Under the pieces are notes generated by a model. It was given only the letters and a program-made list of their open reading frames with translations. It did no database searches and had not been told where the DNA came from. The translations under genes were made by a program, and so were the position numbers. From positions 1 to 43,713 of the forward strand of contig CAIVNC010000005.1 in NCBI GenBank assembly GCA_903907165.1: a DNA stretch of 43,713 nucleotides. Reading direction: 5' to 3'. Below are positions 11,257 through 20,115 of this stretch, piece by piece. How positions within the stretch are numbered: the stretch's first letter is position 1; every line of letters begins with the position of its first letter. This stretch comes from Candidatus Buchananbacteria bacterium (GTDB lineage Bacteria; Patescibacteriota; Patescibacteriia; 2-01-FULL-39-33).

Positions 11257-12477
11257 ATGAAAATCCTTCAAGTCAATAAATTCTATTATCCCAAAGGCGG
11301 AGCGGAAACTTATTTCCTTTCCCTGATTGACGGCCTAAAAAATAACGGCCAGGAGGTTTTAATATTCTCCCAAAAAAACCCAAACAACTTGCCAAGCAAT
11401 CAAGAAAAATATTTTATCTCTGATTTGAATTTGGAAAAATTCAATTGGCCAATGGTCGGAAGTCTTGGCAGAATTTTCTGGTCGTTCAGTGCAGCTAGAA
11501 AAATTAAAAAACTTATCGCCCAAGAAAAACCAGACTTAGTTCATATTCATAATATCTATCATCAGATTTCGCCTTCTATTTTGCCAGCAATCAAAAAGAT
11601 GGGATTGCCGATAATTATGACTGTTCATGATTTTAAATTAATCAAACACGATTATACTCTACGCGCTGATGGCAAAAAAATAAAAAATAAAAATTCTAAT
11701 CTTGTCGATCTGCTTCTTCAGATTGAATTTAATTTTCACAAAAAAATAAACATCTACAAAAACAATGTCGATCTGTTTTTGGTTGCTTCTCAGTTTGTTA
11801 AAGATCAATTAGTCGCCAACGGTTTTAATTCTGAAAAAATTATCATCCAACCGCTATTCACTGATCTAGAAATTAATCAGAGTAATCAGGCAACAGAAAA
11901 ATATTTCATTGCTTTTGGCCGACTTGATGAATCCAAAGGTCTTGATACTTTAATTAGAGCTGCAGCGATTGCCAAGAGCCAACCAAAAATAAAAATTGTC
12001 GGCAATGGTCCAGCCAAAAAAGATCTTATTGATTTAACTTGGGATCTTGGCATTGCTAGTCGCGTAGAATTTACTGGCCAAAAAAATCGCCAAGACTTAC
12101 ACAAATTAGTTTCCAATTCCTTGGCCACAATTTTCCCGACTAGAGTCCATGAAACCTTTGGCTTGGGCGCATTAGAATCAATGGCTCTAGGCAAGCCAGT
12201 TATCGCTACAAAAGCTGGCGCTTTGCCAGAGCTAGTCAAAGATCAAGAAAATGGCATCTTAATTAATGTTAATAATGAAGAAGAATTAGCAAAAGCCATG
12301 GATTATTTAATGGATAATTCTGAAAAAGCCATAGTCATGGGTAAATTAGGACAAGATTTAGCTCAAAAATACAGTTCTAAGGATCACCTTAATCAGATCT
12401 TAGGAATTTATGATAAGATTAAAAATAAATTAGCCACAGACGATTCAAATATTAGTAATTTAGCTAAATTTAGCTAA
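11257..12477 (+). CDS. Glycosyltransferase family 4 (GT-B)
   Basis: 406 aa. The N-terminus (MKILQVNKFYYPKGGAE) and the C-terminal GT1/GT4 EX7E region (ETFGLGALESMALGKPVIATKAGALPELV) are typical. Confidence 0.85.
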   Translation: MKILQVNKFYYPKGGAETYFLSLIDGLKNNGQEVLIFSQKNPNNLPSNQEKYFISDLNLEKFNWPMVGSLGRIFWSFSAARKIKKLIAQEKPDLVHIHNIYHQISPSILPAIKKMGLPIIMTVHDFKLIKHDYTLRADGKKIKNKNSNLVDLLLQIEFNFHKKINIYKNNVDLFLVASQFVKDQLVANGFNSEKIIIQPLFTDLEINQSNQATEKYFIAFGRLDESKGLDTLIRAAAIAKSQPKIKIVGNGPAKKDLIDLTWDLGIASRVEFTGQKNRQDLHKLVSNSLATIFPTRVHETFGLGALESMALGKPVIATKAGALPELVKDQENGILINVNNEEELAKAMDYLMDNSEKAIVMGKLGQDLAQKYSSKDHLNQILGIYDKIKNKLATDDSNISNLAKFS

Positions 12478-12714
12478 AATAACCAGAAAACGGCCAAATA
12501 AGATCAAGAGGCCTTGACAAAAAAGCAATTTTTTGCTAAGATGTGGTATTAAGTAAAAAGCTGGATTCTAGCAATTTACTTAATTTTCTAAGTAGAACTT
12601 TGAAAATTGACTGAAAAAAACTAAACCTAGTTCAGGTTTAATTGTATATAGATAAGTGGCAAGCTTTACCGGCACTCCCTGAGTGATCGGAACTTAACGA
12701 AAGGAGAGATGATC
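12462..12714 (+). promoter_or_regulatory. Regulatory cassette copy 1 (palindrome, promoter, conserved leader)
   Basis: Perfect palindrome AGCTAAATTTAGCT (12462-12475). TTGACA (12514-12519), 17 nt ending TGc, TAAGAT (12537-12542). GAACTTTGAAAATTGA (12595-12610). ATAGATAAGT (12648-12657). Hairpin CACTC-CCT-GAGTG (12673-12685). AAAGGAG (12700-12706). Collinear with copies 2 and 3. Confidence 0.6.
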
Positions 12715-14823
12715 ATGAAAATGACGTCCCTCAACTCCAAGTCCGGCACCCTTTCGGAGTGCCAAAGCAGTAAAAAATCCACGATGGCCAACAAAGGCCA
12801 AGGAGAAAACACCATGAAGTCGTTCAAGATGTTCCTCATCCTCATCATGGCCGTCATGGCCATCGGTTTCACCGGCTCGGCCGCTTTGGCCCAAGCCACG
12901 CTCAACTTGTCCGTGCCCGACGGAAGTGGAAACGTGACTCTCACATTCACTCCCAACGGCACCGCCCTCAACGACGTCCTGGCCCAACCGCAAAGCGGAA
13001 AGACCTGGACCAATGTTGACGGCGGACTCGGCGTCCTTTGGATGATGCCCAGCATCAGTCCATACGGCGTGTATGAGACCAAGACCGGAGCCATCAGTGG
13101 CAGTGGAACTTACACCGCCAACATGACCGGAGTTGGTCAGAATTACGCCGGCGCCAATGTCTCGTTCACGCTTTCAGCCTCCCTCGCGGGAAGTTTGAAA
13201 CTGGTCCCCTACGTTGTTATCAGTGGTACGAAATACTACCTCAACACAACAAAGGTTATCGGCAACTACAATGGTGCGCCGATGACCAAGACCATGGACG
13301 GTGACTCTTGGGACTTTGCCTTGACTGGCACTGCTCCGCCCGCAACCGGAACGCCTCAGGTGACTTTTACCAAATCGTCGTCTGGCAGCGTTACAGCCTA
13401 CATTAATTTGAACGGCTCGACGCAGGTCACCTTGTTCGGTACCGCTGGAACTCCCACCTATGTCTACTTCCTTCATTACTATTCTGATGGAACGACGGCC
13501 AAGGAAAATCAGAGTTTCACCGGTTGGCCCCAGACCATGGGCGTGAACGGCTTCAAGAACGACACGATCTCCGGCATGTTCGGGATCACCGTCGGCGGAG
13601 TCGATTACCCCATGATTGCCACGGCCGCCGATTTTTCCTACAATGGAAAATTGACGCTCGTAAATGGCAAGCTGAGTTTTTCCGTCAATGGAGTCACTCC
13701 GCCCCCGCCGAACACCACCAAGGGCAAAATCACCGCGACAGTTAGCAATGGACAAGTCACGCTGACCCTGGATCCAAACGGAGCCAGTTACAGCAACTTG
13801 TTCTCTAGCAACGGCGGCTTCCCGACAGCCGGCACCAACCCGACCTCCATTCGGGTGACCAACTTCCTCTTGACCAACCCGGTCAACGGTAATTGGGCAC
13901 CGACTTACGACACCAGTGTCGTGGGTCTGAATGGAACGGTTTCGTTCCCGTCTCCGAGCGAAGCAACGGCGCGCTTCAACTTGCAGGCCACCATCAACGG
14001 AACCAATTATTGGTTCAATGTCGATTGGTGGACCATGAGCTTTAACGGCTCAACCGTTACGCCGACCGGTGGCGCTTGGGAAGTGGCAACGGGTTATATC
14101 ACTCCCCCGCCTCCTCCACTAACCACTGGAACGGCCAAGACAGCTCCCGGTGCTTGGCTCTGGAAGATCAACGCTGATGGAAATTTTGTCGCCATGATTG
14201 ACGCTTCCGACAAGGGCAGATTCAAGACCAGAAATCAGGTTGGCTACAAGGCATTCAATGCTCTAGTCTTCCTGGTTGAAGGTCCCGACGGAAACACGTT
14301 CGATCAACAAATCGTCCGCGCCTTTTCCGCTCAGCCCTTCTGGTATACCTTCCGCCCGGTCAGCGTCAAGTTAAAACTGACGGACAATGCTGTTGTTCGC
14401 ATTTTCGTGACGAAGATTGATAACAATGGCGTTGAAAAGCAAGGTTGGCGAACCGAACTTGACCTCGACACCTATATCAACGGCGTCAAAGGCAAGAAAG
14501 CCAACCTGGCCTCCATGAGCATTATGATCGCTCCGCCAGTCATTGGCATGAACGGCGTCATGCTCAAGAACGGAAAACTCTTCACTTACGCCACCATCGG
14601 CCAGCCCCTCGTCATTGACTTGGGAATTGCCGGAAATGCGGATGTCCATGCCGCTATCGTCTACACAGATAGTAGCATCCATCCGCTCGACGTTAGCAAT
14701 GGCAAAGTGATGTACGACCGAGTATCTAACTCGGACTATTACGGCTACGTTGTCATTATGGCCGAGAATAGTCTGGGTAAAGACGCTGTCGTCATCCGCC
14801 TTCTCCGCCCGCCCTGTAAATAG
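12715..14823 (+). CDS. Secreted modular protein A (N1 module, Pro-linked beta-rich domains, unknown C-terminal domain)
   Basis: GC3-rich ORF. The ATG at 12715 lies 8 nt after AAAGGAG, the position homologous to the starts of genes B and E. An alternative ATG at 12814 (RBS AGGAG) lies directly before the signal peptide MKSFKMFLILIMAVMAIGFTGSAALA|QA. The N1 module is paralogous to the N-terminus of gene E. PPPP linkers are present. A strong terminator follows. Confidence 0.85.
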   Translation: MKMTSLNSKSGTLSECQSSKKSTMANKGQGENTMKSFKMFLILIMAVMAIGFTGSAALAQATLNLSVPDGSGNVTLTFTPNGTALNDVLAQPQSGKTWTNVDGGLGVLWMMPSISPYGVYETKTGAISGSGTYTANMTGVGQNYAGANVSFTLSASLAGSLKLVPYVVISGTKYYLNTTKVIGNYNGAPMTKTMDGDSWDFALTGTAPPATGTPQVTFTKSSSGSVTAYINLNGSTQVTLFGTAGTPTYVYFLHYYSDGTTAKENQSFTGWPQTMGVNGFKNDTISGMFGITVGGVDYPMIATAADFSYNGKLTLVNGKLSFSVNGVTPPPPNTTKGKITATVSNGQVTLTLDPNGASYSNLFSSNGGFPTAGTNPTSIRVTNFLLTNPVNGNWAPTYDTSVVGLNGTVSFPSPSEATARFNLQATINGTNYWFNVDWWTMSFNGSTVTPTGGAWEVATGYITPPPPPLTTGTAKTAPGAWLWKINADGNFVAMIDASDKGRFKTRNQVGYKAFNALVFLVEGPDGNTFDQQIVRAFSAQPFWYTFRPVSVKLKLTDNAVVRIFVTKIDNNGVEKQGWRTELDLDTYINGVKGKKANLASMSIMIAPPVIGMNGVMLKNGKLFTYATIGQPLVIDLGIAGNADVHAAIVYTDSSIHPLDVSNGKVMYDRVSNSDYYGYVVIMAENSLGKDAVVIRLLRPPCK

Positions 14824-14856
14824 GGCAAGCAGTAAGTTGTACATTTTCACCCCGTC

Positions 14857-14904
14857 GGGTAACGCTACCTCAGATAAGTCTTCTGAGTAGCGTTACCCTT
14901 TTTT
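14857..14904 (+). terminator. Rho-independent terminator of gene A
   Basis: GGGTAACGCTACcTCAGA (14857-14874) pairs with TCTGAGTAGCGTTACCC (14881-14897), giving 17 bp with one bulge, followed by T7 (14898-14904). Confidence 0.85.
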
Positions 14905-15141
14905 TATTTAAATTTAGATAAAATATCTACTTTTTAGCCAAATTTAAATAAAAAATCCCACGCTTGACAATTATTTGATTTTATTATAATATAAGCCATT
15001 AAACAAATATTATTTTTTGTTTAATAACCAAGGAACTTTGACAATTAAAAGGCTATAAAAAGCTTTCAACATAGATAAGTTAAAAACACCAATCTCCCCT
15101 GAGGGAGACATAGCAGAAAATCCATTCAAAGGAGAAAGCTG
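14905..15141 (+). promoter_or_regulatory. Regulatory cassette copy 2
   Basis: Near-palindrome ATTTAAATTTAGAT (14905-14918). TTGACA (14964-14969) with TATAAT/TAATAT at 14985-14992. GGAACTTTGACAATTAA (15032-15048). ATAGATAAGT (15071-15080). Hairpin TCTCCC-CTGA-GGGAGA (15093-15108). AAAGGAG (15128-15134) 7 nt before the ATG at 15142. Confidence 0.6.
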
Positions 15142-16194
15142 ATGAGCACCAAACAACTCATCATCTTGCCATTACTATTTCTGACGTTTACCGTCGGAAT
15201 GGTTTTTGGACAAGGCAGTCAGGCGAGCACAATAACTTTTGCCCTGCCTGATATCAACGGCAAAATGGCCGTTACAGTTTCAACTCAGCCCGGAGTCCAA
15301 CTGAAAAGTCTTTTGGTTGATCCCAACCTTTTCAGTTCCAATGCGGAGATCACTCAGATCGCCGTCTTTGGTCCAACGGGCTGGGTACTGGCAACAGTCA
15401 CGGACAAAATTACTTCTTTCAGTTTGCCAATAACTTTGGCATCCGGACTAGAAGCCAGTTTTGAAACCGGAGGCACTGCTCCGTTCCGTCATTTTCGTGG
15501 GACACTCGTGGCGGCCAATGGCAGTGGCAGTAAAATCGGCTATTTCCAACTCGACAATTTTACGGGAAAGTATAACAACAATCCCAGCATCATCGTCGAT
15601 GATGGAAACGGTGGAAAAATCATCGATTTCTTCGAACAAGATTTTTTCAGTGGCGCTGATACTACTACGGCAACATTTGGCCTACCAGATGGTACCGGCA
15701 AAATGCCAATTACCATAACGGCTACCTCTGGCGTTCAATTGCGATCGTCACTGGCCAATCCCAGCTTTGTTGATGCGGACAGCTCTATTACCAATATCGC
15801 TGTTTGCGGACCAACCGGCTGGGGACTAACAGCTACCGACCGCGCGCCATTCTCTGGACTGCCGTTTTCGGGACTCAAAGCCAGCTTTGAGCCAGCCAAT
15901 TGGAATTCTCCCAATGTTCTACAAGGGCACTTTCGAGGAAACCTCTTGGCGCTCAATCTCTCGAGCAACATGAACAACACAAGTTACTTCAATCTAACAA
16001 GATTGAAAATTGTTCATGTCAACAAAAAGATTGATCCTGTTGACGACGGCTCAGGCGGCAAAGTGATTGACTTCTGGCAAAACGATTATCTTTTCCGTCT
16101 GAATTTCCTGGATCCAGCACCTCCAGCAAATCAACATTTTTTTAAAGGAGGACTGGCCAAATTCACCAGACGCGCCGTACTAGGGCCGCAGTAA
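15142..16194 (+). CDS. Secreted protein B (two tandem copies of a ~140-aa module)
   Basis: Signal peptide MSTKQLIILPLLFLTFTVGMVFG|QG. Residues ~30-168 and ~176-318 align to each other (F.LPD..GKM..T.....GVQL.S.L..P......I..IAV.GPTGW.L...D........GL.ASFE......HFRG.L..........YF.L..........VDDG.GGK.IDF...D..F). GC3-rich. Confidence 0.85.
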   Translation: MSTKQLIILPLLFLTFTVGMVFGQGSQASTITFALPDINGKMAVTVSTQPGVQLKSLLVDPNLFSSNAEITQIAVFGPTGWVLATVTDKITSFSLPITLASGLEASFETGGTAPFRHFRGTLVAANGSGSKIGYFQLDNFTGKYNNNPSIIVDDGNGGKIIDFFEQDFFSGADTTTATFGLPDGTGKMPITITATSGVQLRSSLANPSFVDADSSITNIAVCGPTGWGLTATDRAPFSGLPFSGLKASFEPANWNSPNVLQGHFRGNLLALNLSSNMNNTSYFNLTRLKIVHVNKKIDPVDDGSGGKVIDFWQNDYLFRLNFLDPAPPANQHFFKGGLAKFTRRAVLGPQ

Positions 16195-16242
16195 AAAGAT
16201 GGATCATCTAAAACCACAAAAAACTAAAAGGAGAATCGAATC

Positions 16243-17166
16243 ATGAAACAGAAGATGATGGCCACTTTCGTAGTCCTGGCGATGATGATCATCGCCAATT
16301 CGGTTTTTGCGCAGCAAATCACCAGTGTCACCTACGGCTGGAAACACTCCACCGACGGGACAAATTTCACCACGATCACTGGAGAAACCTCCGAGACCAT
16401 CAGCGCCCCGACCACCACTTCCGGCAATAATTGGTTGCGTCAAGACGTGACCGGCTGGGCCGAAACCAGTACCGGGTCAATGGTCATTGTGGCGACAACG
16501 TCTACAATCATTACCTATACGGTAAATGACGTGGTCGTTTTCACCCAACAGCCCAGCGATACCAGAGTTAACAGCGGCACTCTTGCCACCTTCTCTGTCG
16601 CGGTGACCGGTACCACTCCGATCAGCTACCAGTGGTATGACATGGCCACAACTATTACCGGCGCCACCTCCAGTACCTATAGTTTCATCGCTACTGGCGC
16701 GGACAATGGCACATCGATCAGTTGTATTGCCACCAACATCACCGGTTCAACCAGTTCCAACCCGGCTCATCTGATTGTGGACACCAAGCCAGTATTCAGT
16801 GTCGGCTTGTCTGATCTGGCCACTACAACTGGCTTAACCGTCAACCTCAGCGTGACCGCAAGTAACATCAACAATCTTACCCAGACCTACGTCTGGACTA
16901 AGAATGGAATTGTCGTCGGTGGCAATTCTCTGAATTACAGCTTCATCGCCACGGACGCGGACAACGGCGCGATCATTATCTGCACCGTGACCGATTCCGT
17001 CGGCAGTGTCAGCACTCAGATGACTCTCACGGTTCAAGGTTGGACTCTGCAAAATACCATCACCGACATTCAGGTCGACGGCGTTCCGCAGACAATGCCC
17101 ATCAATGTGACCAAGGGACATTCCCTTATGATTCGTAAGGTCTGGGTCACAGTACCTAAACCGTAA
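16243..17166 (+). CDS. Secreted protein C (N2 module + two Ig I-set-like domains)
   Basis: RBS AAAGGAG upstream. Signal peptide MKQKMMATFVVLAMMIIANSVFA|QQ. The N2 module is shared with gene D. Ig-like repeats carry FTQQPSD..V..G..ATFSV.VTG..PISYQWY and ...YVWTKNG...C.V.D..G. There is no promoter cassette upstream, so it is probably co-transcribed with B. Confidence 0.85.
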   Translation: MKQKMMATFVVLAMMIIANSVFAQQITSVTYGWKHSTDGTNFTTITGETSETISAPTTTSGNNWLRQDVTGWAETSTGSMVIVATTSTIITYTVNDVVVFTQQPSDTRVNSGTLATFSVAVTGTTPISYQWYDMATTITGATSSTYSFIATGADNGTSISCIATNITGSTSSNPAHLIVDTKPVFSVGLSDLATTTGLTVNLSVTASNINNLTQTYVWTKNGIVVGGNSLNYSFIATDADNGAIIICTVTDSVGSVSTQMTLTVQGWTLQNTITDIQVDGVPQTMPINVTKGHSLMIRKVWVTVPKP

Positions 17167-17178
17167 AAGGAGGCAGCT

Positions 17179-17979
17179 ATGAAACTGCTCATTGCCGTTC
17201 TGATGATTGTCATAGCCATCTCGGTCTCTCCGAGCTTGGCTGGCAATCTTCAACAGCAGTACGCTTGGGACATCGAAACCTCAAGCGGTTGGCAGTCAAC
17301 TGGCATCACCTCCGACACTCTGAGAGCCCCCACCGACAAAGTGGGGGCAATCAGAGTCAGGCAAACAGTCATTGCAATGATCGATGGCAATGTCGTGGCT
17401 TCAACCTCAACCATCTTGAATTATCAAGTGCTTGATGTTAATGTCACTCGGCCATTCTTCATCGTCCAACCAGAAAGCCAAGTCAGCGGTCAGAATCAAA
17501 CCGTGATGCTTGTCTCTCTGGCCACCGGAACCCTGCCAATAAGTTACCAATGGCAGAAAAACGGTCTGGACGTAGCCGGAGCCAATCAAAACACTCTGAC
17601 TATTGCAAGCGTCCAAGAAACAGACACCGGAAACTACCGATGTATGGCCAGTAACTCCGGTGGCTCGATCTTGTCGGACTGGGCCAGTCTGACCCTACTT
17701 ATCAACACCACTATCACCGCCCCGACTTTGAACTTTGTCTCGGACTCCCAAGCTATCTGGCTTGGTTCGCCGGCACTGCTTCATTGTCAGGCTAGTGGTG
17801 GCAATCTGCACTTTATTTGGCTCCGAAATGGCATCCCCATTCCCGGAGCTATCGCCCCAGACTACCTGATTCCAAGTGTCGCCCTCCAAAACGGCGCTCA
17901 GTATCAGTGCTTTTTCTGGAATGACGTCGGAACCAACATCTCCGGCATCATTTATCTGACGATTTTGACGCCAAATTAA
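17179..17979 (+). CDS. Secreted protein D (N2 module + Ig I-set-like domain + C-terminal variant Ig module)
   Basis: RBS AAGGAGG 6 nt upstream. Signal peptide MKLLIAVLMIVIAISVSPSLAG|N. Ig repeat motifs: QPESQVSGQNQTVMLVSLATGTLPISYQWQKNG...DTGNYRCMASNSGG. The C-terminal module ASGGNLHFIWLRNGIPIPG...GAQYQCFFWN is paralogous to the C-terminus of gene E. Confidence 0.85.
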   Translation: MKLLIAVLMIVIAISVSPSLAGNLQQQYAWDIETSSGWQSTGITSDTLRAPTDKVGAIRVRQTVIAMIDGNVVASTSTILNYQVLDVNVTRPFFIVQPESQVSGQNQTVMLVSLATGTLPISYQWQKNGLDVAGANQNTLTIASVQETDTGNYRCMASNSGGSILSDWASLTLLINTTITAPTLNFVSDSQAIWLGSPALLHCQASGGNLHFIWLRNGIPIPGAIAPDYLIPSVALQNGAQYQCFFWNDVGTNISGIIYLTILTPN

Positions 17980-18003
17980 ACAAAAAAACGTCAATAATCA
18001 TTC

Positions 18004-18046
18004 GCGACCAACAAACCCCTAAAAAGGTTTCTTGGTCGCTTTTTTT
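18004..18046 (+). terminator. Rho-independent terminator of the B-C-D unit
   Basis: GCGACCAAcAAACC (18004-18017) pairs with GGTTTcTTGGTCGC (18026-18039), followed by T7. The stem ends (GCGACCA...TGGTCGC) resemble the terminator of gene E. Confidence 0.8.
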
Positions 18047-18264
18047 ATCTAAATTTAGATAAAATAACCAATTACTATTGACAAAAATCAAAATGTGTGC
18101 TATTCTTATCAATTAAATCAGAAAAGCCTTTGATTTAAGGAACTTTGAAAATTGAAAGTAATATGGCCCAAAAGCCTTAAAATATAAAGAAAAGATAAGT
18201 TAACCTGGACTCCCCTAGGGAGACCTTACCTTAGCTCAGGGCAAAAGCCCAAAGGAGTAGTATC
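18047..18264 (+). promoter_or_regulatory. Regulatory cassette copy 3
   Basis: Perfect palindrome ATCTAAATTTAGAT (18047-18060). TTGACA (18078-18083), 17 nt ending TGc, TATTCT (18101-18106). GGAACTTTGAAAATTGA (18139-18155). AGATAAGTTAA (18193-18203). Hairpin CTCCC-CTA-GGGAG (18210-18222). AAAGGAG (18251-18257) 7 nt before the ATG at 18265. Confidence 0.6.
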
Positions 18265-20115
18265 ATGAAAAAGTTGATCCTCGCAGTATCAGTTTTCTGT
18301 TTGTTGTTGACATCGGTCTTCGCCGAACCCCTCATTTTCTTTACCGTCCCCCAAGACGGTGTCACATCGTTCAGTTTCAATGCCAACGGCGCCACCATGG
18401 CCAATACTCTGGTTAATCCGCCCGTCGGCAAAAACTGGGCTGACGTACATGAAATGGGAATTCTCTGGATGTTTCCGAATAACGCCCCCTGGGGAGTATT
18501 CGAAACCACTCCTATTTCCTTGACTTACGGAAACGTCTCCAACTTTACAGTCAACATGATTGGAAGCGGAGTCAATTACAATGGGACTTCCGTGTCGTTC
18601 ACAATTTCTCCTTCTCTCGCGGGAAGTCTGAAGTTGAACGCGTACGCTGTCATCGACAATGTCAAGTATTATTTTGACACCACAAAAGTTATTGGCAACT
18701 ATGACGGCGCGCCCATGACCAAGCTCATGGATCTCCAAAACTGGGACTGGGCGACGCAATCACCGATTGCACCACAAATCGTTCAGCAGCCGACGAGCCA
18801 GACCCTCTATCCGGGAGAAATAGCCACCTTTACAGTCGTGGCAACCGGATCTGGCAGCCTGTCTTATGAGTGGGCAAAAAATGGAGAGAAACTGGATGGC
18901 GCAAGTTCATCTTCGCTAAATGTTTTTTACAGCTCCGCCGTTAATGGTGATAAGTATCGTTGTATCGTCACTAATTCTGCCGGAACTATTACATCTAATG
19001 AGGTTGAGCTGACGGTGGTGGCAATACCCGGGAAACCGACGATTACTCAGCAACCAACCACCAATACTGTCGTTCTTGGAAATCAGGCAGTATTCATGGT
19101 TTCAGCAACTGGCAATGGAACTCTGAGTTATCAATGGTTCAAAAACGGTGCCGAAATAATTGGAAGAACAACTTCAACTCTGGTCATTACTAACTCTCAA
19201 CTTAGTGATGCCGGCTTGTACTATTGTTCTATCACCAATAAAACTGGCGCCGGAGTAATGTGGGAAAACTCAATTGAAGTTTCCCTGATCGTCAATGAGG
19301 CTGCAAACGCGCCTCAGATAACAACTCAACCGAGCGACATACTCGCCATCGCCGGAGAGTCCAAAGTAATATTTACCGTTGTGGCCACGGGCAATGGCGT
19401 CCTGACCTACCAATGGGCAAAGGGCGAAAACAATATCGCCGGAGCAACCAGCTCCACCTTGGCTTTTCCCAATGTCCACCTGGATGATGCCGGGCAATAC
19501 AGTTGTGCCGTCACCAACACAGTTGGAACATCGGAACTCTCCGTAATGTCCAATAAGGCAAATCTGACTGTGGTTTCTCCAATCATAATCACACAGCAGC
19601 CGGTAAACCAAACGGTGACCATCGAGCAAGACGCGGTTTTTACCATTGCCGCCACCGGTCCCGGAACACTGAGTTATCAATGGTATTGGGATAGCGTACA
19701 GATCCCTGGCGCTACAAGCTCAACGTTGACAATCAATCACGTTGAGTATAAAGCGGCGCCGAGCACAGTTTACTGCGTCGTTTCAAATCAGTATCAGGGT
19801 GTCGGTTCTAATTCGGCAACTCTGACAACGACACCGCCGGCCGAAACCACCCCAACCATCGAGTTGGTCTCGCCGTCCCGAGCCATCAATCTCGGCGACA
19901 CAATCACCCTGTCGGTGATTGCGAGCGGTGGAAATCTTCAGTACCTGTGGCTCCGTAATGGCATTCCCATTGCCGGAACTGCGAACCCTGACCTCACCAT
20001 CACCAACGCGGTGCTGAGAGACGGAGCACAATATCAATGTTTTGTCTGGAACAGTTCCCACCCGCTGGGAACCATGACCCAGATCATTTATGTAACCGTT
20101 CTGACACCCCAATAA
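18265..20115 (+). CDS. Secreted protein E (N1 module + four Ig I-set-like repeats + C-terminal variant Ig module)
   Basis: Signal peptide MKKLILAVSVFCLLLTSVFA|EP. Residues ~21-165 are paralogous to the gene A N1 module. Four ~85-aa repeats (about residues 170-252, 257-343, 349-436, 439-522) carry QP.sq....G..a.F.V.ATG.G.LsYQW.KNG..i.GATSStL........DAG.Y.C.vtN..G. The C-terminal module (530-616) is paralogous to the C-terminus of D. Confidence 0.9.
   Translation: MKKLILAVSVFCLLLTSVFAEPLIFFTVPQDGVTSFSFNANGATMANTLVNPPVGKNWADVHEMGILWMFPNNAPWGVFETTPISLTYGNVSNFTVNMIGSGVNYNGTSVSFTISPSLAGSLKLNAYAVIDNVKYYFDTTKVIGNYDGAPMTKLMDLQNWDWATQSPIAPQIVQQPTSQTLYPGEIATFTVVATGSGSLSYEWAKNGEKLDGASSSSLNVFYSSAVNGDKYRCIVTNSAGTITSNEVELTVVAIPGKPTITQQPTTNTVVLGNQAVFMVSATGNGTLSYQWFKNGAEIIGRTTSTLVITNSQLSDAGLYYCSITNKTGAGVMWENSIEVSLIVNEAANAPQITTQPSDILAIAGESKVIFTVVATGNGVLTYQWAKGENNIAGATSSTLAFPNVHLDDAGQYSCAVTNTVGTSELSVMSNKANLTVVSPIIITQQPVNQTVTIEQDAVFTIAATGPGTLSYQWYWDSVQIPGATSSTLTINHVEYKAAPSTVYCVVSNQYQGVGSNSATLTTTPPAETTPTIELVSPSRAINLGDTITLSVIASGGNLQYLWLRNGIPIAGTANPDLTITNAVLRDGAQYQCFVWNSSHPLGTMTQIIYVTVLTPQ

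Follow-up and report, generated by a model that had tools for sequence, protein, structure and literature searches.

Probable use of the ribosomal-RNA transcription machinery by three surface-protein units of a Candidatus Buchananbacteria genome

A Candidatus Buchananbacteria contig bears, one after another on its + strand, three transcription units for secreted proteins, which carry in their predicted 5' leaders the same box that is found ahead of the rRNA genes of this genome and its family. Judged from sequence, these surface-protein units probably borrow the machinery that transcribes ribosomal RNA. The stretch of DNA analysed here (the window) is contig C5, 43,713 nt in length; it belongs to a genome of 755 kb in 57 contigs, with a G+C content of 39.7% and a rated completeness of 86%. 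It is matched by four DNA runs of one lake-water study and by no RNA run.

The genes and the elements of their leaders are listed in Table 1. Immunoglobulin-like repeats build the last three of the encoded proteins (307, 266, and 616 aa), and the 704-aa and 616-aa proteins have a common N-terminal domain, with 45% identity over 162 aa. The Ig genes are paralogues, and the proteins of the units are 25 to 45% identical. With a G+C content of 47.5 to 53.8%, the surface-protein genes stand well apart from the window, at 40.5%. The N-terminal domain of the 616-aa protein is present in 4 of 33 relatives of the same family and was found in no other family in a class sample of 401 genomes; the 350-aa protein gave no usable match in the protein atlas. 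All three units end in a G+C-rich hairpin followed by a run of T, with the terminators at 14905, 18046, and 20221. In the 704-aa ORF the signal peptide begins only after 35 codons (12709-12813), at 12814, and has a GGAG of its own in front of it; the ORF thus either is extended by a long stretch at its N terminus or has a second start site. The Shine-Dalgarno conserved among the leaders serves, in this unit, the upstream ATG at 12715.

Table 1. Positions of the transcription units and of their leader elements in the window
Feature	Positions	Strand	Basis or remark
Unit 1: 704-aa protein	12709-14823	+	
Unit 1, predicted sigma-70 promoter (TTGACA, 17-nt spacer, TAAGAT)	12514-12542	+	promoter scan, 10/12 hexamer positions
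Unit 1, 5'-terminal hairpin (9-bp outer stem and inner 5-bp stem)	12549-12583	+	minimum-energy fold
Unit 1, boxA-like box (copy 1)	12594-12610	+	matrix 17.2 bits, rank 6 of 1.5 million positions
Unit 1, variable hairpin after box (7 bp)	12622-12640	+	
Unit 1, ATAGATAAGT box	12648-12657	+	
Unit 1, hairpin 3	12669-12690	+	arms earlier given as 12673-12677 / 12681-12685
Unit 1, Shine-Dalgarno GGAG and likely start ATG at 12715	12703-12717	+	start in ORF list, 12709
Unit 1, intrinsic terminator (long G+C-rich hairpin, then T run)	14858-14905	+	read by eye
Unit 2: three genes (350, 307, and 266 aa)	15142-17979	+	
Unit 2, predicted sigma-70 promoter	14964-14992	+	promoter scan, 10/12 hexamer positions
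Unit 2, 5'-terminal hairpin (9 bp, loop of 8)	14999-15024	+	minimum-energy fold
Unit 2, boxA-like box (copy 2)	15032-15048	+	matrix 21.4 bits, rank 3
Unit 2, variable hairpin after box (6 bp, one G-U)	15049-15066	+	
Unit 2, ATAGATAAGT box	15071-15080	+	
Unit 2, hairpin 3 (6 bp)	15093-15108	+	
Unit 2, Shine-Dalgarno AAAGGAG and start codon of 350-aa gene (first of three)	15128-15144	+	
Unit 2, intrinsic terminator	18004-18046	+	read by eye
Unit 3: 616-aa Ig-repeat protein	18265-20115	+	
Unit 3, predicted sigma-70 promoter	18078-18106	+	promoter scan, 10/12 hexamer positions
Unit 3, 5'-terminal hairpin (9 bp, one G-U)	18113-18138	+	pairing comparison
Unit 3, boxA-like box (copy 3)	18139-18155	+	matrix 20.0 bits, rank 4
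Unit 3, AGATAAGT box	18193-18200	+	
Unit 3, hairpin 3	18207-18225	+	arms earlier given as 18210-18214 / 18218-18222
Unit 3, Shine-Dalgarno AGGAG and start codon of 616-aa Ig-repeat gene	18253-18267	+	

A palindrome, YTAAATTTAR, occurs in the window at 12464-12473, 14908-14917, and 18049-18058. The 755-kb genome contains 81 copies, against about 13 expected from base frequencies and 3 to 14.5 for composition-matched control words. It usually sits within a longer T-rich/A-rich palindrome, has TTGACA 15 to 19 nt downstream in 15 cases, and also stands ahead of the 16S promoters of relatives. It has the look of an upstream promoter element used throughout the genome, or of a binding site for a global regulator.

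A boxA-like box in each of the three leaders had been proposed in an initial annotation of the window. The box, described by the pattern GGAACTTTGAMAATTRA, is indeed present in three copies. GAACTTTGAMAATTRA has three exact matches, at 12595, 15033, and 18140, all on the + strand, and these are the only exact copies in the whole genome; with up to two mismatches, four matches were found in the window against 0.48 expected, a count reached in none of 100 shuffles, and the recurrence is thus not random. Copy 1 starts with A rather than G and therefore matches 16 of the 17 positions of the longer form. Each box lies about 45 to 55 nt downstream of the predicted promoter and ends 93 to 109 nt before the start codon; it is in sense orientation within the predicted 5' leader and mostly unpaired in the predicted folds. 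In the initial annotation, copy 2 had been put at 10 of 11 positions of the E. coli rrn boxA core, and copies 1 and 3 had been likened to a variant in Firmicute rrn leaders. Against the published gamma-proteobacterial consensus, GYTCTTTAANA, our own count gives agreement at 8 of 11 positions and disagreement at 3; the boxA consensus may differ in other bacterial groups, as stated in the passages of Baniulyte 2017 cited here (PMC5725501).

A clearly different boxA in the rRNA leaders of the organism had been named as evidence against the assignment; instead, the same box was found in all 27 usable rRNA leaders of the family. These comprise upstream stretches of 16 23S and 11 16S genes. Of 19 distinct 23S stretches, two cut by contig ends and a foreign-looking one on a tRNA contig were dropped; the 13 16S stretches lost one duplicate and one in which the motif search took the promoter over a visible box. 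The core TTGACAAYT is present in 16/16 and 11/11 of the respective regions, without mismatch in 23 of the 27, at 102 to 308 nt before the 23S 5' motif and 123 to 293 nt before the 16S start. The flanks of the box are also conserved, though they lie outside the search motif. The genome's own rRNA leader boxes are at C44:13670 (16S) and C18:24218 (23S). Allowing one mismatch, the 17-mer has matches in 11 of the 33 other family genomes, and the reversed control pattern has 5 in the relatives; six of the 11 sites lie 100 to 300 nt upstream of 23S genes, four in 5' leaders of protein genes, and one in a long open frame. Degenerate forms of the box were unspecific: one gave 28 matches, against about 48 for its reversed control, and a further degenerate pattern was outnumbered by its controls. 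Only the 28-match set was used, for its contexts, and the other was discarded.

A position matrix was built from 25 rRNA sites of the relatives only, and both strands were scanned (1,508,688 positions). The best site, at 25.6 bits, lies in a leader on contig C13, the second (23.6 bits) in the genome's own 16S leader, and the fifth (19.2 bits) on C43; the remaining places among the first six are taken by the window boxes. These are the only six hits at or above 17 bits, compared with one when the matrix is reversed; 30 column-shuffled matrices averaged 1.27 such hits (0 to 5). At least five of the six lie upstream of a gene or rRNA and in its sense direction. The matrix is a blunt classifier, for it gives the 23S box of this same genome no more than 12.2 bits. 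Because the organism's own rRNA leaders and those of its family carry the same box, the identity of the window element as the lineage's rRNA-type boxA is strongly supported by the sequence comparison.

The rRNA loci of the family show further features. Relatives' genomes measure 0.6 to 1.4 Mb, their 16S and 23S genes are unlinked, and their 23S genes span as much as 3.9 kb, traits reminiscent of the candidate phyla radiation. In three of them (G010, G011, and G030) the 16S and 23S genes lie on the same contig, 21 to 60 kb apart, and therefore each has its own leader and box; their 23S spans of 3.7 to 3.9 kb against a 2.9-kb model imply insertions. In most family genomes, a conserved nested pair of inverted repeats ending in a run of T is found about 100 to 150 nt upstream of the 23S box (L005, about 1250-1330; also L006, L011, L014, L016, L017, L022-L026, L030, and L032). 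It could be the terminator of the upstream gene or the 3' end of a small RNA; an Rfam search of four rRNA loci returned the rRNAs only, with no match for the nested repeats. Upstream of the 16S box, a long block with a T-rich end keeps nearly every base from genus to genus (L001, about 1200-1320; L049-L061); we read it as a structured leader element.

A perfect or near-perfect -35 hexamer (TTGACA or TTGAAA) lies inside the box, and in the genome's 23S leader TATAAG follows 18 nt after it. Both observations would suit a box that acts in DNA, as the -35 element of an internal promoter or as an operator. A -10-like hexamer 16 to 18 nt downstream was found at only 3 of the 27 rRNA boxes, however, and at none of the three window boxes, and the internal promoter was rejected on this ground. 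The promoter scan finds no promoter at the box, the box is not palindromic, and the sense orientation of the top matrix hits also argues for a role in RNA rather than DNA; we give action in DNA the least credence of the readings considered, and hardly any at all.

Between promoter and box, each leader carries a 5'-terminal hairpin. It starts in a conserved ATTAA, 5 to 7 nt after the -10 hexamer of the predicted promoter, at the predicted transcript start. Over the three copies, 27 of 27 cells of the stems are standard pairs, and double changes, each in one copy, occur at stem positions 5 (G-C, A-U, and A-U in copies 1, 2, and 3), 6 (U-A, C-G, and U-A), and 7 (A-U, A-U, and C-G). The region 12550-12612 of leader 1 has a folding z of -3.38. 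The hairpin of leader 3 is not the minimum-energy structure once the box is included; 18110-18157 folds differently. The gap from hairpin to box is 11, 8, and 1 nt in copies 1 to 3. A stable hairpin directly before the box (z below -1.5 relative to shuffles) was also found in 7 of 11 16S, 3 of 14 23S, and 6 of 14 mRNA leaders. The 5'-terminal hairpin may be an mRNA stabiliser; an mRNA stabiliser had been offered as an alternative in the initial annotation, and that suggestion may be right, but for this hairpin, which was absent from it.

Conservation elsewhere in the leaders takes the form of islands between spacers that differ in length and sequence. Every leader has AGATAAGT (12650, 15073, and 18193), which ends 57, 61, and 64 nt ahead of the start codon; by itself this 8-mer is not rare, since it matches 5 times where 1.17 would be expected and 2 of 100 shuffles got to that count. 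The hairpin arms lie where they had been placed, except that those of the first variable hairpin were one base off (12623-12628 and 12634-12639). Hairpin 3 had been credited with compensatory changes. Pairing is preserved in every copy, but copies 2 and 3 have an identical CUCCC/GGGAG stem, and the stem of copy 1 is another one, for which a shift of register is an equally good reading; as a case of covariation this is weak evidence, with only three paralogous copies and no usable covariation among them. Folded whole, the leaders show no unusual energy (z = -0.11, -2.46, and -1.12). The predicted folds do not support masking of the Shine-Dalgarno by the CUCCC arm; the Shine-Dalgarno is strong and predicted unpaired in all three leaders. 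The three leaders, being paralogous, are not independent observations, and a MAFFT alignment left their hairpin arms out of register.

Rfam gave no match at the gathering threshold over the whole window, and at E values up to 5 over 12400-18300 it gave only a chance match to a CRISPR repeat. A composite pattern (box, 15 to 45 nt, AGATAAGT) was found in this genome only among 35 genomes of the order. Elsewhere it retrieved 20 metagenome and 4 genome stretches, which we attribute to chance because the layout of hairpin, Shine-Dalgarno, or promoter is missing from all of them. Two of the loci (L093 and L094) share a near-identical stretch followed by short tandem repeats in MAGs of an archaeal and a bacterial phylum; either a mobile element common to both or faulty binning accounts for this, and the leader box is not involved.

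The additional conserved pieces, namely, the AGATAAGT box at its near-constant distance from the start and the CUCCC hairpin, could be accommodated if the box were read by a factor other than the Nus proteins, such as an RNA-binding protein, a ribonuclease, or the ribosome, for processing, stability, or translation common to rRNA precursors and a few mRNAs; the likeness to rRNA leaders is, moreover, one of sequence alone. What makes such a reader distinctly unlikely is that the box stands ahead of both 16S and 23S genes, the usual place of boxA in other bacteria, that it fits a published boxA consensus, gamma-proteobacterial though that is, at most positions, and that NusB is kept in a reduced genome, boxA binding being the only function of NusB reported in the passages of PMC13753749 used here.

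Boxes directly after promoters precede further protein genes in this genome and in relatives. The best box in the genome (C13, about 7812, - strand; L152) lies 41 nt before the start codon of a gene for a 944-aa PAS/GAF hybrid sensor kinase, in a leader without a 5' hairpin. In the relatives, box-led genes code for PhoH+PIN, PRPP-synthetase-like, U32-family, and ChaN-like proteins and several proteins without a Pfam match; together with the C13 gene, 10 of 11 such genes have the box 9 to 67 nt before the start codon. A boxA-type element on protein-coding surface genes had been called unusual in the initial annotation; for boxA ahead of protein genes and other units, published precedents exist in suhB (PMC5725501) and CRISPR arrays (PMC13753749), to judge from the portions of those papers that describe them. 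Homologous genes are box-led across genera as well. L097 and L104, two homologues from different genera that have no Pfam match (27% identity, 397 aa aligned; E = 3e-26), are both box-led. The case of the 616-aa gene is weaker: its Ig-protein homologue L125, from another genus, is 32% identical from residue 1 over 285 aa and has the layout of promoter, 11-bp hairpin, degenerate box (6.9 bits), and Shine-Dalgarno, and a second homologue (L124) has a hairpin and no box.

The leaders might be alike only through duplication of the units, with the box as a passenger that has no present function. The N-terminal domain common to the 704-aa and 616-aa proteins and the paralogy of the Ig genes would be expected from such a history. 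Simple duplication fits poorly, however, with conservation confined to islands between variable spacers ahead of proteins so far diverged, with the pairing of the 5' hairpin kept through double changes, and with the presence of the box on unrelated genes in this and other genomes; we consider a passenger box very unlikely.

The rrn antitermination complex consists of NusA, NusB, NusE/S10, and NusG, plus SuhB and S4 in E. coli. The genome encodes one NusB, one NusG, S10, and NusA, as the NusB/NusE-type processive antitermination initially proposed for the leaders would require. That proposal keeps its boxA-type element and loses its usual anti-Rho sense, which cannot apply because the RNA-binding domain of Rho was found in none of the 34 family genomes searched. 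Completeness is 90% or more in 29 of these, and among control genomes the domain search gave matches in 9 of 14. SuhB (Inositol_P family) had no match in this 86%-complete genome. A single NusG N-terminal domain match was obtained, with no second NusG paralogue in the genome, and a specialised paralogue of the LoaP/RfaH type was rejected on this ground.

Given the identity of the box with that of the rRNA leaders, its sense orientation, its position in the predicted leader, and the retained Nus genes, we take loading of NusB and S10 to be the best reading of the element. The RNA of each unit would begin with a short 5'-end hairpin followed by the lineage's rRNA-type boxA; as the leader emerges from RNA polymerase, NusB and S10 would bind the single-stranded box and stay on the polymerase via NusG and NusA, giving an rRNA-type elongation complex. 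The gain would be fast elongation that resists pauses and weak terminators over 2 to 2.8 kb of unusually G+C-rich genes, with the 5' hairpin protecting the mRNA end. In a family without Rho, the benefit of the box could not be protection from that factor. Binding by NusB/S10, the site where transcription starts, whether the effect is positive or negative, and stabilisation by the hairpin are all inferred. A positive effect of such a complex across the surface-protein genes, with a protective hairpin, is the account that we favour, tentatively and with slightly less than even confidence.

Favouring it are the 17-mer matches before 23S genes of relatives, the presence of the core in every usable rRNA leader, the matrix ranks of the window boxes, the encoded Nus proteins, the consistently paired 5' hairpin and its counterparts before 16S boxes, the homologous box-led genes of other genera, and the boxA elements that the cited parts of PMC5725501 and PMC13753749 place before protein genes and CRISPR arrays. 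Several observations weigh against it. The classical rationale for antitermination is missing in the absence of Rho from the family and of SuhB from this genome. A strong intrinsic terminator closes each unit directly ahead of the next promoter, so it is not evident that a polymerase resistant to such terminators would be required or desirable. The low score of the genome's own 23S box, the absent and degenerate boxes of the two homologues of the 616-aa gene, and the paralogy of the leaders also count on this side. Finally, in suhB, the one well-studied mRNA case, the Nus complex represses, as described in the relevant passages of PMC5725501.

The last point supplies the strongest competitor to NusB/S10 loading with a positive effect. 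Binding of NusB/S10 to the box could loop the leader to the polymerase, hinder 30S access, and so throttle translation of the surface proteins according to the amount of free NusB/S10, a pool that would reflect the state of ribosome synthesis. The sections of PMC5725501 on which we rely describe boxA-dependent repression of translation that persists with 2 to 100 bp inserted between boxA and Shine-Dalgarno. The box-to-start gaps in the window can be compared with that range, and the shorter distances of the relatives and the C13 gene are close to the suhB geometry; the translational half of the known mechanism could still work without Rho. On the other hand, the effect in E. coli runs largely via Rho and SuhB, the former absent from the family and the latter without a match in this genome; why surface proteins should be tied to Nus factor levels is not obvious; and the strong Shine-Dalgarno is predicted unpaired in every leader. 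We therefore regard repression of this kind as unlikely, though a real contender, and favour the positive effect on elongation over it.

A wider proposal, that NusB/S10 on boxA is a regular regulator of mRNAs in a Rho-less lineage, beyond its help in rRNA synthesis, and acts on one to four leaders per genome that include those of the main Ig-repeat proteins and a hybrid sensor kinase, is conceivable from these sequences, though we hold it with less confidence than the positive effect on the window units. If it is true, the Nus complex would have a Rho-independent job on mRNA, either in polymerase speed and pause resistance or in coupling surface-protein output to ribosome production. The passages of PMC5725501 and PMC13753749 cited here explain the Nus/boxA system almost entirely through Rho; a Rho-less lineage that keeps NusB and has boxA on its rRNA and a few mRNAs would be a natural experiment on the other roles of the complex. 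The box would also provide a concrete, testable regulatory signal in uncultivated bacteria with small genomes and would mark the Ig-repeat surface proteins as specially expressed. A literature search found no published work linking boxA with names of the candidate phyla radiation. That boxA can precede protein genes is already known, as the cited part of PMC5725501 attests; what sets the present case apart is a setting that lacks the usual Rho rationale.

Among known systems, the boxA of rrn leaders and spacers is the nearest relative of the window element. The leaders carry the box of the family's own 16S and 23S genes, in sense, in a genome that encodes the Nus proteins, and in both settings the box is often preceded by a hairpin; they differ in that the window box lies on protein-coding mRNAs in a family devoid of Rho, in a genome where SuhB was not found, and in that the family box departs from the gamma-proteobacterial consensus at three positions. 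In the NusG-paralogue systems (RfaH with ops, LoaP with a leader hairpin) and with the eps-associated RNA, long operons for surface structures have a leader element that ensures their expression, a purpose akin to that considered here; in this genome, by contrast, there is one NusG-family gene, no Rfam match was obtained, and the box is of the rRNA type and not ops-like. The 5'-terminal stem-loops of the E. coli ompA and B. subtilis aprE leaders stabilise their mRNAs. The window hairpin resembles them in beginning a few nucleotides from the transcript start, here a predicted one, and in keeping pairing over sequence. In suhB, the passages cited from PMC5725501 describe translational repression followed by Rho termination, with boxA within 50 nt of the start codon. 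Likenesses to that case, as far as those passages go, are a site in an mRNA leader, few targets per genome, and varied target functions; here, however, there is no Rho, the box lies 93 to 109 nt from the start codon, and three adjacent units carry it. Upstream of CRISPR arrays, boxA protects untranslated RNA from Rho in the account given in the part of PMC13753749 cited; like the window element, it would be a boxA borrowed for full-length transcription of a long unit, whereas the window RNA is translated and its host has no Rho.
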